The notes beneath the pieces were generated by a model. That model had not been told where the DNA came from. It was given only the letters and a program-made list of their open reading frames with translations, and ran no database searches. From the IMG/VR virus record IMGVR_UViG_2571042390_000001: a stretch of 64,000 bases of DNA. The stretch is one strand, 5' to 3'. A program made the position numbers and the translations under genes. Of the stretch, positions 7,612 through 59,708 are shown in pieces; within the stretch, counting starts at the first letter, position 1, and each line of letters opens with the position of its first letter. This DNA comes from a virus (Duplodnaviria; Heunggongvirae; Uroviricota; Caudoviricetes).

Positions 7612-7665
7612 CCTGTGTGTCTACAAAACATCCCAATGATCGGAAAATGCTCGGCCGATTATTTA

Positions 7666-7674: not shown

Positions 7675-7899
7675 ATTAATTTGCTGTTTCTAAAACGGAA
7701 TGTATGATCTGCATCATCGACTGAAGTCATCCATTGCTGAAATTTTTAGTTGATCTTCCATGTTTTCAGGCTTATATTCATGCCGTCGTAGCAAATTCTG
7801 CGACCGGGTTTGACAGCCTGAATGTTAGTGCGGACAACCGCAGATTTCCGATATTGCGGTATTTTTGTGTCCGTAAACCGCGTTACGCCCGAATTATGG

Positions 7900-8000
7900 T
7901 GGGGCGTGATGGGGAGGCTTCGGCCTGCTGGTTTCACTAACGCCAGTCTGTCAACCCTGTCACGTCCTGCCACCTGTTTGACAGCGGGTGGCAGGTTGTT
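7900..8000 (+). ncRNA. Candidate c4-like antisense regulatory RNA (immI type), copy 1
   Basis: Non-coding region before icd-like gene; hairpin about 7966-7995; segments about 7921-7926 and 7935-7941 complementary to RBS region about 8007-8019. Confidence 0.35.
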
Positions 8001-17529: not shown

Positions 17530-18024
17530 TTGTTGTTATTATTTCGCATATTTACTATCAATGGGTGTGTTAGAAAAATAGCGCGAAAGAGAAGGCGTCG
17601 CAGTGAATATTCTGAAACATCCCCACATGCCGCAGCTCTTAGAGAACTGGAGAAAAACCCAGATCTAATCAAAAGGAACCATGAGCATTACGAGCAGGTT
17701 CGCGTCCTGGACTGGATGTATCGCAATATGCGTTATGTGTATGAGCATACTCACGCCACTCCAAACGGTGGCCTGCGAGGCATAAGGACGGCAATAAAAA
17801 TGGTGGCAGAGGGCCAAAAGAAGGGATATCCCGATCTTTCTATAGACCTTGCTTGTGGGGGATACCACGGAATGCGCATTGAGATGAAACATGGGAGAAA
17901 TCGCCTGACTCCCGAACAACTCGTCTGGATGACTCGCCTCACAGAAGCCGGTTACTACTGCTTTGAGGCGCGCAGTGCCGCTGAAGCCATAAAAGCTATC
18001 ACGGAGTATGTTTGTCTTGATTAA
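17530..18024 (+). CDS. VRR-NUC domain nuclease-like protein
   Basis: KKGYPDLSIDL ... RIEMKHGRNRLTPEQ PD-(D/E)xK-type motifs; true start is probably internal to the track ORF. Confidence 0.5.
   Translation: MLLLFRIFTINGCVRKIARKRRRRSEYSETSPHAAALRELEKNPDLIKRNHEHYEQVRVLDWMYRNMRYVYEHTHATPNGGLRGIRTAIKMVAEGQKKGYPDLSIDLACGGYHGMRIEMKHGRNRLTPEQLVWMTRLTEAGYYCFEARSAAEAIKAITEYVCLD
17568..17576. promoter_or_regulatory. Operator-like motif (TGTTAGAAA)
   Basis: Core motif in 5' region of the VRR-NUC ORF. Confidence 0.4.
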
Positions 18025-18648: not shown

Positions 18649-19857
18649 ATGAGTCAACACACTGATACTTCTAATCTGGAAATTATCTCGACAGCAATTG
18701 AAACGCTGCGCACACAAATCGCTCTTATACAGAAACGGAATCCGGGTGATGACCTGTCAAAGCGACTGCACGAGAGTGTCATTGCCACTACAGATAACCT
18801 GGTGGCGGAAATCAACAAGCTGCTTGATGATGGGGCAGTTGATTACAATAAGCTGGTGGATCAGTTTGAGGAATACCAACAAGCAGTTAATGATGGCTTG
18901 ATCCGTTTTTCACAAGTCACAGGCGTATCAGCGACAGTTGAAAGCCTGGGTGATGCAGTTAATCAATTTGCCGCGAATATGCGTAATGAGATCGGCAATC
19001 TGGAAGCGCGTCTTGAACAGGCAAATACACTGCGTAAATCTGCCGAAGCCGATTTGAACCGTTACAAAAAAGACTATCCGCCAAGCCTGACAAAGCGGCT
19101 GGATGTTGCGGAGAAGGATAACCGCACGCTGAAAAGAGAGCGCCGGGAACTAAAAGAGCGTTTAACCAAGCTCAATCAGCAATGCATTGATTATCAAGGC
19201 GAAGGCGTCACACTGCGTAAAAAGTTGGCTACAGCGCAGAGCATTATCGAAACATTAAAGCGAGAGTGCTCACAGCTTGGTCACGATCTGAACCGTGCTT
19301 GTGGCATGGGACAAAGACCAGAGACATTTCCACTTATGTATGATGGAAGGGATGCCATTGCCTACATCCATGAGTATCCGCACGGCCTGGTTGCGGAAAC
19401 TGGGCAGCGTGGCGAAGCACTGCTGACGGCTAATTACCATCAACAAATCAGAACCAATCGCCTGTTAACGATGGATGTGATCCCATCGGTATGGGGAACG
19501 CCGCTTTACTATCGCCTGCCGGGCTTCGAAAAGGACTGGAATACCGACATAGACGAATGTCTCGCAGATAAAATTATGGCGTATCTGGAGACGGATTTTC
19601 CGCGCTTATATCGCCGGATTATGGACTCTAAGGATGCGCCAATCGATGAATTAAAAATGCGTCCGGAGACGCTGGAGGCAATCAAGCAGACGGAGTTTGA
19701 TACTGTATTCAGTGTGGCCTGCATTCCAAGCTGTTTCCATGAAAGCATCCCGTTCATGCAAGGAGATCGTCGTCAGGAAATCATTGACGCTTGCCGGGTA
19801 TGGGCGAACGAATGGGATAAGAAGAATGGGGGTGTAGAAGATCTTTATGGGAAATAA
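18649..19857 (+). CDS. Hypothetical coiled-coil protein (402 aa)
   Basis: N-terminal heptad-rich half, globular C-terminal half; operator-like motif upstream. Confidence 0.5.
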   Translation: MSQHTDTSNLEIISTAIETLRTQIALIQKRNPGDDLSKRLHESVIATTDNLVAEINKLLDDGAVDYNKLVDQFEEYQQAVNDGLIRFSQVTGVSATVESLGDAVNQFAANMRNEIGNLEARLEQANTLRKSAEADLNRYKKDYPPSLTKRLDVAEKDNRTLKRERRELKERLTKLNQQCIDYQGEGVTLRKKLATAQSIIETLKRECSQLGHDLNRACGMGQRPETFPLMYDGRDAIAYIHEYPHGLVAETGQRGEALLTANYHQQIRTNRLLTMDVIPSVWGTPLYYRLPGFEKDWNTDIDECLADKIMAYLETDFPRLYRRIMDSKDAPIDELKMRPETLEAIKQTEFDTVFSVACIPSCFHESIPFMQGDRRQEIIDACRVWANEWDKKNGGVEDLYGK

Positions 19858-20509
19858 TGTGTTAGAAATCTAAAATCACAATTCGAATGTATTGATTGTG
19901 AAGATAACTTAACATAGAATTTTCCTTGCTGGTGGGCGGTACCCACGTTTCGCTTGCTGGGCTTGATAGTCACTTATTGGTTATTGTTCGCCCACCAGCA
20001 TTTAACAAATTAAAGTGTTAGAAATGTATAGTAATGCAAGAGCACGCTTTGGCACCGTGCAGGCCAAAGTTCAGCAGGTTTAGTGCGGAAAGTGGTTTCA
20101 GAGAGAGCACTTTGCGGAGTAAACGACAATACATGTTGAGCCACGGAAGGTCTTTTTAAGGTGTTCATTGATGATGGTCCGGCAGAGAGTAACGGTACAT
20201 GCTGCATCTAATCATCAATGCACATCTTCAACATTAAGGAGGCATAGGGATTTTTGTGGCGGTTACCTTTTGCCCTGAGTCTCCTTAATGTTGCGGTAAT
20301 GCACCTATGCGGATGTGGCCTTGCATTGTGTCTTGAAAGAATGGGGTAAGGCCGGGGATATCCCCAGGGGGAGGCACCCCCGCTGCAACGAACAGCCACA
20401 GACGGCAGTCGAGTGATGGAAACGTGTAAAGACTTTAAACCTCGTTACGGCTGGCGTGGCAAACGCGACAACCGAGACAGAGCGGTGACGGGCGGAGAGA
20501 GTGCCGCAT

Positions 20510-20631
20510 CAAGAAAGAAGCCGACTTGTGATCCCTTTCAGCGGGCATTTGAAAGTGAATCCAGCTCAGGCAGTCGGCTTCTTTCTTGTGTGAGATGTAG
20601 CGTATTTGCCCATCTTCGGGTGGGCTTTTTT
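20510..20631 (+). ncRNA. Candidate structured small RNA (long hairpin plus intrinsic terminator)
   Basis: 17-bp stem caagaaagaagccgact/agtcggcttctttcttg with nested hairpin, then gcccatc/ggtgggc stem and T6. Confidence 0.3.
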
Positions 20632-21092
20632 AGGGTTTTCGTCATGGTTAGCGACTTTGCGGCGGTTTAGAAACTGACCATTAAAGTAAATGCAAACGAT
20701 GATCTGATGATGGTAGCGGCCTAAGAAGCCAGACGCCACGGGGTATGAGTCGTCCCCCGTCAAAAAAATCGACCGCAGAGTGTCCCCGTCTGTGTATTAG
20801 GGAACGGGGAGGCATAACAGGCAAGGGCGCTGGTGTGATTAACCAGATGAATGAGAAGGGTCAGGTCTTTCTGGTCAGCGCCCTTACCTGTTGCGTCCTT
20901 CCCGCGTAACAGCCATTGCTTAATGGCATCCTGGGAGAACTTCTTGTAACGGGTATATCCCGTCATGCTGAAGGCGCTAATCACGCTGGAAGCCAGGGTT
21001 GTGCATCCCCTGTTACCGAATTGCAGCCAGGGCGCGGTGCGCCGAAAAGCATACGGAGGTGGAAGCCCTCGCCGGAGACGTACCCGGCAAGT

Positions 21093-21167
21093 GATGGTGT
21101 AGCTCAGCGGTAGAGCAGTTGGCTGTTAACCAACTGGTCGGTGGTTCGAATCCACCCACCATCGCCA
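21093..21167 (+). tRNA. tRNA-Asn (anticodon GTT)
   Basis: Cloverleaf: acceptor GATGGTG/CACCATC, T-arm GGTGG-TTCGAAT-CCACC, anticodon loop CTGTTAA, 3' CCA. Confidence 0.8.
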
Positions 21168-21172
21168 ATTTA

Positions 21173-21259
21173 GGGGAGTTAGTCCGTAGGGGTAGCGGGG
21201 TAGACTGTAAATCTACTGTCATTGCGACTCGGGTGGTTCGACTCCATCACTCCCCACCA
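21173..21259 (+). tRNA. tRNA-Tyr (anticodon GTA), long variable arm
   Basis: Acceptor GGGGAGT/ACTCCCC, anticodon loop CTGTAAA, type II variable arm, 3' CCA. Confidence 0.7.
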
Positions 21260-21263
21260 AATT

Positions 21264-21339
21264 GCCGGTTTAGCTCAGTTGGTAGAGCAGTCGCTTTGTA
21301 AGCGAATGGTCAGCGGTTCGATCCCGTTAACCGGCACCA
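21264..21339 (+). tRNA. tRNA-Thr (anticodon TGT)
   Basis: Acceptor GCCGGTT/AACCGGC, D-arm TAGCTCAGTTGGTAGAGC, anticodon loop TTTGTAA, 3' CCA. Confidence 0.8.
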
Positions 21340-21408
21340 ACACAACAGGTAAGAGCATTTGTAGAGTTCGACTCTCTACCGTGGGCTTTTTCCCGCGATG
21401 CGAGCCAT

Positions 21409-21439
21409 AAATGCTCTTACCGTTGTGATGAAGTGCAGC
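21409..21439. repeat. tRNA-array-associated repeat, copy R1
   Basis: aaatgctcttaccgttgtgatgaagtgc; 3' strand of a long hairpin that follows tRNA-Thr. Confidence 0.4.
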
Positions 21440-21650
21440 TCTTTGAAGCAACCAGAAGATAAGCATCTGGCTTCACAACATAAACCGCAGGAACGACCAA
21501 TAAACGGTAGTCCGTATGGAGAACACCCCGTTGAGGAAGAGGTCTGGCCGGAACCGTAACCGGCACTACAACGTTGAGAACACTGGCGTAACGGGGTCAT
21601 ATCCCAATCTACGAATAAATGTTGCGTTGCAGCGTGACAACCAGTGTTCT

Positions 21651-21674
21651 CAACATTGTGGTGAATGCGCAGGC
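21651..21674. repeat. tRNA-array-associated repeat, copy R2
   Basis: caacattgtggtgaatgcgcaggc; preceded by inverted repeat gttgagaacactgg/ccagtgttctcaac. Confidence 0.35.
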
Positions 21675-21974: not shown

Positions 21975-22004
21975 AAATGCTCTTACCATTGCGGTGAATG
22001 CGGC
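21975..22004. repeat. tRNA-array-associated repeat, copy R3
   Basis: aaatgctcttaccattgcggtgaatgcggc; follows tRNA-Ser. Confidence 0.4.
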
Positions 22005-22385: not shown

Positions 22386-22607
22386 CATTTGGTTGTAACA
22401 CGGCGTATGGCACATGCGTCGTTAGCGGTCTGGTGTAGCTGTTAGGTACCTTTTACTAACACTGCATGGGCACACCAGGTAGCCGGAATGTGCAAGCCCC
22501 GTTCATAGCGTCGGACTGCGGATTCACCATCCTGGCGATTCGGTGTGACAGCCGGAAGAGCACGGCGCACAACAGGAAAAGGCGTTTAATTAGCGTGAGC
22601 GCCGTTT

Positions 22608-22633
22608 CCGTTGTGGTAATTGCGGCTATGCGC
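22608..22633. repeat. tRNA-array-associated repeat, copy R4
   Basis: ccgttgtggtaattgcggctatgcgc; downstream of tRNA-Ile2. Confidence 0.35.
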
Positions 22634-47497: not shown

Positions 47498-48091
47498 TTT
47501 TAAGTTGAATTGAAAAACTCTCCGATGTACATTCACTACCGATTGGCACACCGGTCAACTTTTTGAGACAAACTGTTTAGTTTTTCGTATTATTGCCTCC
47601 GCCATACCTATGGCGGTGCAATATAGGTGGCTGAAAAGCCCCCGTTGACTCACGGTGTTCCAGCCTTTATTGCGCCGCCACCAGACCGTGGAACAGTCGA
47701 TGGCGGCTCCGAAAGCAAGGAGTCACAACACTATGAACAACTACAGTCTTTTCCCATCACTCGTCTTCCACCACTCACGCGATAATCTGCATTCTTTGCT
47801 CGCGCCGGGGGTGTCAAAATGACTGTTCGCTACCTCAACTTTCAAATCAAGAACATTACTGGCGGTTGCTATGACTGGTTTGTCACTCTCGGAAAAGAAG
47901 TGATCACCGGGAAGCTGGATGAAGTGAAAGCTAAAGCAATGGCCTACGCCTGCAAGCAAGTCAGGAAGAAATCCGCCAAAGCATAAAATACTGACTGTTG
48001 CGCCCTGGCATTATCGTGGGGTATATTTCTACGGCACCTTAGAAAAACGGGTGCCGGGATTGGAACCCCGGATAATGTCAAAGGCGACACA

Positions 48092-48113
48092 GACGCCGAA
48101 CGCGTCTTTTTTT
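48092..48113 (+). terminator. Rho-independent terminator
   Basis: gacgc/gcgtc stem followed by T7. Confidence 0.5.
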
Positions 48114-48149
48114 GTGTCATGCCATCGCACAGCCATACTTAGCGTTTAG

Positions 48150-48260
48150 CTCAGAGATCAATGGTAGTGCTGGCTGGGCTGCCGAAAGGCAGGCCGGTTC
48201 CCTTTGACGCCGGTAGTTCCAACCCAGTCAGTGCTACCGCCATTGAGATTGGAACCTCAC
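48150..48260 (+). ncRNA. Candidate c4-like antisense regulatory RNA, copy 2
   Basis: Segments at about 48187-48191 and 48200-48206 complementary to RBS region of icd-like gene 2 (about 48280-48294). Confidence 0.35.
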
Positions 48261-59664: not shown

Positions 59665-59708
59665 CCATTTGTGTTAGATAATTAACGCGTATTTTCTAAC
59701 ACAAATGG
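59665..59708. promoter_or_regulatory. Palindromic operator-like site upstream of hrdC-dmt
   Basis: ccatttgtgttaga ... tctaacacaaatgg perfect inverted repeat containing the core motif twice. Confidence 0.55.

Follow-up and report, generated by a model that had tools for sequence, protein, structure and literature searches.

What does a long and perfectly paired hairpin do in the untranslated space ahead of a phage transfer RNA (tRNA) cluster? The question is raised by positions 20510 to 20631 of IMG/VR virus record IMGVR_UViG_2571042390_000001, a stretch of 64,000 nucleotides (nt) of Caudoviricetes DNA, referred to below as the window. The first-pass annotation of this DNA had proposed a structured small RNA here, made up of a 17-base-pair (bp) stem with a nested hairpin and, shortly after it, an intrinsic terminator. 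From the way the paired positions have changed among relatives we conclude that the hairpin is a plus-strand RNA structure that has been maintained in evolution, and as to its function we give about an even chance to a hairpin that works in cis, for processing or as a boundary, within a polycistronic stable-RNA operon.

A conserved hairpin structure on the plus strand

The structural part of the proposal proved accurate, in that the inverted repeat scan returns the 17-bp perfect stem, a nested hairpin is predicted inside it and a canonical, conserved terminator follows about 20 nt later. The further inverted repeats that had been noted upstream are likewise there, as the leader hairpins I2 (20155-20231) and I3 (20229-20293). 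The elements are as follows.

20510..20588, plus strand: the hairpin (inverted repeat scan, fold, covariation)
20510-20526 / 20572-20588, plus strand: outer stem, CAAGAAAGAAGCCGACT with AGTCGGCTTCTTTCTTG, 17 nt, 100% complementary, 45 nt apart
20530-20532 / 20559-20561, plus strand: middle helix, 3 bp
20535-20540 / 20550-20555, plus strand: inner helix (nested hairpin), CTTTCA with TGAAAG, predicted, 6 bp
20566-20571, plus strand: unpaired TCAGGC, invariant
20589..20607, plus strand: linker TGTGAGATGTAGCGTATTT, 19 nt, unpaired in all folds
20608..20631, plus strand: intrinsic-terminator-like hairpin GCCCATC-TTCG-GGTGGGC followed by T6 (consensus scan)
20155-20175 / 20211-20231, plus strand: leader hairpin I2 (inverted repeat scan)
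20229-20249 / 20273-20293, plus strand: leader hairpin I3 (inverted repeat scan)

The 17-bp repeat is the sole perfect inverted repeat of at least 17 nt within 150 nt in the whole 64 kb, and we estimate the chance expectation of such a repeat at ~64000 x 150 x 4^-17, or roughly 6e-4. In the predicted fold the outer stem gains 4 bp past a 1-nt bulge, the fold energy of 20505-20592 is -39.1 kcal/mol, and a 136-nt stretch over the site reaches z = -3.8, with none of 200 shuffles folding as well. The terminator (7-bp stem at 20608-20625 with 5 G-C pairs, UUCG loop, then TTTTTT) has a fold energy of -12.5 kcal/mol, and its pairing is retained in all P1-family lineages through changes of G-C to G.U and of U.G to C-G.

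Covariation was assessed on 11 distinct hairpin sequences from three lineages, which align without gaps, and against a structure specified by hand (outer stem, 3-bp middle helix and 6-bp inner helix, 26 pairs in all). Across these variants 97.2% of the cells are paired and 7 of the 26 pairs are altered on both sides, values that none of 500 shuffles reached, and sliding the partners by 1-3 columns lowers the pairing to 36-51%. Pair 10/82 occurs as G-C, as G.G in the MIN14 type of locus (an intermediate) and as C-G in the HX138 type, both types being described below; pair 14/78 occurs as G-C, A-U and C-G, pair 12/80 as A-U and U-A, and pair 37/47 as A-U, U.U and U-A, while in the inner helix pairs 35/49 and 36/48 are both exchanged in HX138. 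The same variant has a U.G pair at 22/70, and I2, I3 and the terminator show many exchanges of G.U for A.U or G.C. On the opposite strand these would be A.C mismatches, and the structure is therefore assigned to the plus strand, on which the tRNA genes lie as well.

A DNA-level element, be it a cruciform, a protein-binding palindrome or a recombination site for the shuffling of modules, would also account for a perfect 17-bp inverted repeat at a mosaic junction with a history of module gain and loss, and the exchanges of A-T for T-A and of G-C for C-G are neutral as to strand. The U.G pair of HX138 and the G.U pairs of the sister hairpins and the terminator fit plus-strand RNA only, however, the nested and asymmetric interior is conserved along with the palindrome, and there are no further copies in Escherichia coli chromosomes, all of which makes such an element very improbable. 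Even less can be said for a small protein gene, whether in short minus-strand open reading frames (ORFs) or in the 85-codon, GTG-started ORF at 20413-20670, the sole sizeable ORF spanning the site. In 7 of 16 variants stops leave this ORF with 4 or 34 codons, HX138 has lost its 5' half, a 112-nt insertion interrupts it in the MIN14 type, and neither the D6 record nor PGAP annotates it, so that a coding function is next to negligible and the annotation was right to see no convincing ORF here.

The hairpin is one of a series, since of the local inverted repeats of the 64 kb, ranked by length, 6 of the first 14 fall within 20155-21663. Hairpins I2 and I3 are retained across 16 variants via the G.U exchanges mentioned above and compensatory changes, such as those from A-U to G-C at pair 207/267 and from G-C to A-U at pair 222/252, and against shuffles the 600-nt leader 20036-20635 has z = -5.4 on the plus strand and z = -4.6 on the complementary strand. 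Directly 5' of the hairpin, the 200-nt block 20300-20507 shows next to no variation (3-5 variable columns per 50 nt), although its flanks differ by up to 18% between lineages. The block contains the GC hairpins GGGGATATCCCC and GGGGGAGGCACCCCC, HX138 has cleanly lost about 130 nt of it (roughly 20390-20509), and it could be either a mosaic block or a constrained element.

Setting and upstream control signals

Over 20000-21100 the sequence shares 99.1% identity with Escherichia phage D6, a plasmid prophage of the P1 family, and from 20605 onwards the window is ~92% identical to P1, P7, SJ46, RCS47 and relatives. Judged by these identities, the window is a D6-like P1-family phage-plasmid. Hairpin and terminator lie in a 1.24-kb gap without conserved ORF between a pmgS-like gene and tRNA-Asn, and the same gap in the GenBank record of D6 carries no annotation. 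The setting between operator-like motifs and tRNA genes had been described correctly, and the hairpin region lies downstream of two such motifs and two promoter-like sites.

18649-19857: pmgS-like scaffold gene, 5' border of the gap
19859..19875, plus strand: C1-operator-like motif 1, GTGTTAGAAATCTAAAA, directly after the pmgS-like stop codon
19892..19920, plus strand: sigma-70 promoter-like site TTGATT-17-TAGAAT, 3' of motif 1 (consensus scan)
20002..20032, plus strand: second promoter-like site, TTAACA ... TATAGT, hexamers read from the sequence
20015-20031, plus strand: operator-like motif 2, within the spacer of the second promoter-like site
21093: tRNA-Asn, 3' border of the gap

With at most one mismatch, GTGTTAGAAA has 17 matches in the window against 4.1 expected, a number that none of 100 shuffles reached, and the motif extends to about 17 bp as (A/G)TGTTAGAAAAnTAAttt. 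In this longer form it makes inverted pairs at 7665/7687, adjoining a C4 RNA gene, and at 59671/59693; further sites among the 17 lie at 17567, 18610, 29670 and 46830. Motif 1 is retained in the MIN14 and HX138 variants despite diverged flanks, as are both hexamers of the promoter-like site next to it (with TAGAAT in MIN14 and TAAAAT in HX138), and the HX138 counterpart of the second promoter-like site reads TTAACA-17-TATAAT. At the equivalent place P1 has the C1-controlled promoters P1ban/P2ban with the operator Op72ab, an arrangement which resembles that of motif 2 inside its promoter-like site, although the P1 operator ATTGCTCTAATAAATTT differs from the D6-type motif. By analogy with this operator and with Op72 at Pban, the 17-bp motif is probably the operator of the D6 C1 repressor.

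Downstream the order is a transfer-messenger RNA (tmRNA)-like element, tRNA-Asn, Tyr, Thr, Ser and Met, and then the tci genes. The tRNA-Tyr(GTA), 87 nt at 21173-21259, is called by ARAGORN and has a weak Rfam score of 41.9 bits; the D6 record lists Asn, Thr and Ser and is without it.

Distribution and modularity

The hairpin leader is present on 113 PLSDB plasmids, nearly all of them ~90-kb non-mobilisable plasmids of Escherichia, Salmonella or Shigella, and in 98 of 5426 complete E. coli genomes, where it is always plasmid-borne, never chromosomal and unannotated throughout. Among GenBank phages D6 is the sole carrier. Scans of IMG/VR and a locus search based on the pmgS protein returned the same lineages again and no deeper relatives of the hairpin, the hairpin pattern scan of GTDB species genomes gave two chance matches only, and among the right-length matches of the JGI metagenome scan (119 stretches) there was only one new single-base variant. 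When anchored on the conserved sequence 3' of the terminator, the P1-family loci sort into four types; left out of this count are two P1-like loci with a variant module and pSa1423 (L003), which is error-ridden with many single-base indels and was set aside.

D6 type, 46 loci: hairpin, linker of 19-22 nt, terminator
P1 type, 83 loci: Pban/Op72, three-hairpin module, terminator, without the long hairpin
MIN14 type, 18 loci: hairpin, three-hairpin module, terminator
HX138 type, 1 locus: like MIN14, more divergent

The MIN14 and HX138 types have 105-130 nt inserted between hairpin and terminator, at the linker, and no other place in the region varies as much as the linker does (124 of 158 alignment columns, a large number of them via the inserted module). 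Hairpin and terminator are separable modules. The conservation in P1-like genomes to which the first-pass annotation had looked is accordingly partial, since the D6-like lineages retain the hairpin and its fold, whereas of hairpin and terminator P1 has the terminator alone.

Relation to DicF and the case for a small RNA

In P1 the Pban promoters are followed by a 'dicF-like region' (NC_005856 68791-68892), then by ~450 unannotated bases and then by trnA. The homology between window and P1 starts exactly at the terminator discussed here, which is therefore the hairpin closing that region. The P1 region matches the E. coli K-12 chromosome, in prophage Qin, at L033 1201-1281, just upstream of DicF (1306-1357), and because the match ends 5' of the DicF coordinates, the label fits the locus, that is the flank of dicF, and not the small RNA itself. 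What Qin, P1 and the MIN14 and HX138 types share is a unit of three hairpins, the third of which combines a stem that covaries (GGGTTGTCA, GTTGCCA or GGTGATCA in Qin, P1 and HX138) with a 19-nt loop GGTTGACCATRCGCYTAAG that is invariant in all four. The hairpin with this loop was located at 2937-2985 of L002 (P1), 1240-1285 of L033 (Qin) and 1790-1830 of L004, and in L034, and a P1 query matched 4019 of the 5426 E. coli genomes, mostly via the part with this loop. In its DicF setting and with this loop, the module is absent from the window and from D6, where ~25 nt before the hairpin resemble the first hairpin of the dicF-upstream module and the similarity is limited to those nucleotides. The slot 3' of the three hairpins is taken by DicF in Qin and by a variable linker with the shared terminator in P1-family elements. 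Further downstream, window 21990-22127 matches the Qin segment that separates DicF from dicB (L033 1379-1502) with 77% identity over 139 nt; this Qin-like segment sits upstream of a tciA-like region. Taken by these matches, the locus belongs to a mosaic shared with the Qin dicB operon.

The DicF locus of Qin is like the window in being an untranslated stretch of a repressor-controlled operon, but a small RNA is produced there, whereas the window is without DicF and without the module upstream of it, and neither Qin nor P1 has a counterpart of the long hairpin. In work attributed to Faubladier et al. in 1990, RNase III and RNase E are said to release DicF from a long transcript. DicF, an RNA of 53 nt with a 5' stem-loop and a terminator, acts on ftsZ by base-pairing. 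We found nothing relevant in the literature on P1 and dicF or on the ban operon.

The comparison lends some appeal to a self-contained, trans-acting small RNA of ~120 nt, or a 3' fragment of ~43 nt, which would pair with host or phage messenger RNAs. The architecture fits (a stable 5' hairpin, an A/U-rich single strand and a strong six-U terminator), the terminator is the one that closes the P1 region, the homologous slot in Qin holds DicF, and the D6-type arrangement is nearly invariant among its 46 loci. The linker that would have to carry the seed is however hypervariable and split by the insertion in two lineages, the consensus scan shows no promoter-like site directly upstream of the hairpin, and the DicF model (RF00039) has no match in 19850-21100 even at E <= 10, while it scores 76.7 bits on Qin DicF as a positive control; it does not match the P1 'dicF-like region' either. 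Of the traits of Hfq-type small RNAs, the terminator and U-tail are thus present, and a conserved seed and an own promoter were not found. No Rfam family reaches its gathering score on hairpin or terminator in a scan of the whole window, and STnc240 (minus strand, 25 bits) and MicA (22 bits), which came up on the hairpin in a permissive scan of 19850-21100, are chance-level matches. What stands of the proposed small RNA is a conserved, covarying plus-strand structure in a locus whose Qin counterpart makes DicF; what does not stand is the notion of hairpin plus terminator as one conserved gene unit, and a trans-acting RNA of this kind is in our opinion unlikely.

A tmRNA-like tag element 3' of the terminator

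The sequence that adjoins the terminator turned out to be a more interesting object than the hairpin itself.

20634..20825, plus strand: tmRNA-like 'mRNA-like domain' (weak Rfam matches, cross-family alignment, tag census)
20692-20724, plus strand: tag frame ANDDLMMVAA*, start-less, 10 codons, from GCA at 20692 to GCC at 20721, with the stop at 20722-20724

In the permissive Rfam scan this region gave weak tmRNA matches (permuted tmRNA, 23.8 bits, E = 0.015), which are due to the tag frame GCA AAC GAT GAT CTG ATG ATG GTA GCG GCC TAA. A search with 20632-21092 found matches, almost never annotated, in 326 phage records of unrelated families, among them P1, P7 and D6, the P22-like HK620, N4-like Gamaleyaviruses such as ECBP1 and IME11, the Ackermannviridae phiMAM1, PhiSH19, PhaxI, Ag3, Magnus and Menlow, many Klebsiella, Salmonella and Escherichia phages of 46-49 kb, and Aeromonas pAh6-C. 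The surroundings of the element were examined in three records: HK620 has it between pR'/qut and the late terminator, ECBP1 12 nt before an aberrant tRNA, and phiMAM1 inside the tRNA cluster. An alignment of four phage families shows ~190 nt to be conserved, corresponding to window 20634-20825.

A census of 212 loci fetched by the pattern GAAAC-N12-14-AAATGCAAACGA found exactly ten codons and a stop in 205 of them. There are 32 nucleotide versions that encode 19 peptides, including ANDDVVLMAA, ANEEMYLAVA, ANDEQFLAVA, ANDDLMLMAA and ANEERFLMAA, the first of which is encoded in eight different ways. Entropy is highest at the third and lowest at the second codon position (0.77, 0.46 and 1.12 bits at positions 1, 2 and 3), the stop is TAA or TAG, there is no start codon 5' of the frame, and indels between an upstream in-frame UAG and the GCA codon exclude a longer conserved frame. 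These patterns indicate that the frame is under selection at the protein level, as befits the tag frame of a tmRNA, and we know of no explanation other than a tmRNA tag template for such a frame. The tag is followed by a hairpin with a covarying stem, in which pairs 124-126 / 141-143 each show 4-6 double changes, and by a second one with a covarying stem and the conserved loop GTGTGATTAATAA; the loop of the first appears by eye to form a pseudoknot with a stretch further downstream (CCGA/TCGG, CCAG/CTGG, GTCG/CGAC).

With SsrA the element shares the start-less ten-codon frame GCA AAC GAx ... GCx TAA (ANDENYALAA in E. coli), an A-rich context before the resume codon, and a stop codon in a small hairpin loop that is followed by a hairpin or pseudoknot. 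In contrast to SsrA, it is conserved over ~190 nt only and is without a recognisable tRNA-like domain. With default settings ARAGORN finds no tmRNA in the window, P1, HK620, ECBP1, phiMAM1 or 19 representative phages, the tRNA-like domains placed by relaxed runs contradict each other and were rejected, and the scores of the Rfam tmRNA families, 21-33 bits, fall short of their thresholds of 47-50. The canonical features of such a domain (a T-arm beside the stem, G3.U70, an encoded CCA) are missing. Two further helices were tried and given up, namely a long-range helix 20634-54 / 20975-94, which closes a 360-nt domain in the single-sequence fold and the distal part of which is missing from one P1-family variant, and a P2-like helix closing the tag element, which is good in P1 and not retained in ECBP1 or the siphophage type. 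RNAalifold on the 19 representatives returned three helices only, from an automatic alignment that is poor in the 3' half.

In N4-like and Vi1-like phages the tag element has aberrant tRNA-like genes on its flanks (ECBP1, L278 1310-1381 and 1673-1751; phiMAM1, L279 1280-1371), which are candidates for a separate acceptor piece. ARAGORN labels them 'tRNA-Ala(cgc)' and 'tRNA-Cys(aca)', their anticodon stems are poor, the tRNA model finds nothing in the aberrant tRNA of ECBP1, and one of the genes has a small match to positions 347-363, at the 3' end, of the standard tmRNA model.

A tmRNA census of 2014 knew phage tmRNAs from mycobacteriophages and Bacillus phage G only (PMC4131195), and a database paper of 2025 counts 79 phage sequences that are not itemised (PMC11915505). 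We found no description of the tag element in the accessible literature on tmRNA-like phage RNAs, and novelty is therefore not claimed.

Bracket stems and the terminator as a closing stem

In 13 of the 19 representative phages there is pairing between the 18 nt that immediately precede the element's GTTTTCG and a partner 40-91 nt further upstream, giving a covarying stem of 15-18 bp that encloses a hypervariable insert of 22-73 nt. Examples of the paired arms are TATCAGGTAAGAGCATT with AATGCTCTTTCCGATA, TATCAATGAGTACACTT with GAGTGTACTCTTTGATA and CTGTTTGGGCATTAGAC with GTCTTGTGCTCAAACAG. In P1 and D6 the terminator occupies the position of this stem, and in the alignment, where its 3' half with the U-run (GGTGGGCTTTTTTAGGGTTTTCG) falls on the 3' arm AGTGCTCTTTCC-AGTTTTCG, it looks like a reduced version of the long stem, with 7 bp and with a UUCG loop in place of the insert. 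The terminator may thus be a structural boundary as much as a terminator.

Such stems, which we call bracket stems, have the family consensus CACAACAGGTAAGAGCAyT ... ArTGCTCTTwCCGTTGTGG and a boxA-like TGCTCTTT in the 3' arm; the latter is often followed by a small hairpin GTGAATGCGCAGGCTGATGCGCG. The same bracket stems, even with the same inserts, stand at differing positions in HK620, N4-like and other phages, and one HK620 insert is also found in the hairpin preceding the tag element of another phage.

20813-20892, 21341-21430, 21564-21663, ~21979-21996 and 22568-22618: bracket stems in the window, interspersed with tRNA genes
1411-1497 and 1655-1770 of the HK620 locus (L277): bracket stems on both sides of the tag element

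The 17-bp hairpin has the architecture of this family, with a stem of 17-18 bp, an insert of some tens of nt and a GTTGTGG-like tail, and the boxA-like word is degenerate in it (GCTTCTTTC).

It may then be asked whether the terminator is mainly the 5' closing stem of a tmRNA-like RNA, comparable to the joined acceptor stem of permuted tmRNA, with the hairpin an accessory in the precursor; in permuted tmRNA precursors, too, a stem joins the stretch 5' of the tag element to an upstream partner. Besides the alignment of GGTGGGCTTTTTTAGGGTTTTCG and the covarying upstream pairing in the other phages, the selected tag frame and the length of the P1/D6 stem, which is exactly 7 bp, agree with this notion. 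The missing tRNA-like domain, the inconsistent relaxed placements and the subthreshold Rfam scores speak against it, as does the stem itself, which has no T-arm beside it and a wobble at G2.U71, lost in the MIN14 type, rather than G3.U70, and a hairpin with six U is a textbook terminator anyway. We hold a closing stem in this strict sense to be distinctly unlikely, and it is in any case compatible with the processing model favoured here. A broader formulation, in which the locus is the 5' edge of a widespread phage RNA with a genuine SsrA-type tag frame and no canonical tRNA-like domain, the terminator its reduced closing stem and the 17-bp hairpin a member of the bracket family, is one that we put forward as tentative.

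Function of the hairpin

The explanation to which we give an even chance is that the hairpin is one of several long bracket hairpins in series in the ~1.2-kb untranslated leader of a repressor-controlled operon. The D6 C1-type repressor would occupy both operator-like motifs in the lysogen and keep both promoters silent, and upon induction or infection transcription would run rightward through the structured leader. The 17-bp duplex (22 bp with its extension) would then act in cis as a processing and stabilising signal of the RNase III type, and the hairpin of 7 bp, UUCG and U6 located 20 nt downstream would stop some of the transcripts and delimit the following module on its 5' side. Small stable RNAs, such as the ~85-nt hairpin and a ~43-nt piece of linker plus terminator, are plausible products by analogy with DicF, which is cut from the transcript of the dicB operon, and we regard them as by-products or lineage-specific riders and not as the conserved function. 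Processing or boundary formation is favoured over a small RNA because the unit is not conserved as a unit, because the would-be seed is its most variable part and because look-alike stems flank other modules.

The structural requirement for an RNase III site, a coaxial duplex of ~20 bp within a longer transcript, is matched by the 17 + 4 bp with their compensatory changes. Stems flank the 16S and 23S rRNA in rrn operons, and the early RNA of T7 carries the RNase III sites R1-R5. As in those systems, the hairpin is a long and near-perfect duplex of about two turns in an untranslated part of a polycistronic transcript with stable RNAs, several stems occur in series, and related stems bracket variable inserts beside functional modules. 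Unlike the rrn stems, however, this predicted site encloses 45 nt and no known functional RNA, and unlike plain RNase III sites it has an invariant upper stem and bulge, suggesting additional recognition.

The C4 antisense RNA of P1 and P7 (RF01695) offers a second comparison, being a small regulatory RNA, likewise from this phage family, that is released from the leader of a C1-controlled operon. It has no likeness to the hairpin in sequence or structure, its model does not match 20510-20631, and its a1/b1-type target pair has no known counterpart for the hairpin. The two C4 copies in the window (7892-7977 and 48157-48244, 77 and 69 bits) show that P1-type phages do use processed leader RNAs. 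The first C4 region (7772-7977) has an a1/b1 target element (7772-7824) and the second (48034-48244) an isrK RNA just upstream (48034-48112), and there look to be two immI-like regions in the 64-kb window.

Several points weigh against a processing or boundary hairpin. The covariation comes from three lineages only and thus from few independent events, and every functional step of the model is inferred. P1 has the operon without this hairpin and manages without it, from which it follows that the hairpin is not essential for expression of the operon. The arms of the hairpin resemble the bracket family weakly, at 10 of 17 positions and at 12 of 17 in HX138 as judged by eye. Finally, no lineage shows a change in the upper stem AAGCCGA / TCGGCTT or in the unpaired TCAGGC, which points to a sequence-specific partner and would be superfluous for a plain RNase III site.

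Biological meaning

The hairpin adds an unannotated and structurally conserved RNA module to the P1/D6 family, and its slot is a mosaic site at which RNA modules are swapped between phage-plasmids and lambdoid prophages. Taken alone it is a lineage-restricted form of a well-known type of element. It is valuable chiefly as a pointer to the neighbouring tmRNA-like element and to the way in which bracket stems organise the tRNA regions of phages, and it provides a testable model of phage tRNA operons as arrays of modules separated by long stems. The tag element is common to hundreds of enterobacterial phages and is missed at the thresholds of ARAGORN and Rfam. If the proposed nature of this element is true, phages bring along with their tRNAs their own template for trans-translation, or a decoy for tmRNA-SmpB, and the tag could re-tag or spare the products of stalled ribosomes during infection. 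Should the element be functional, the well-studied P1 would allow direct tests of how phages manipulate ribosome rescue.

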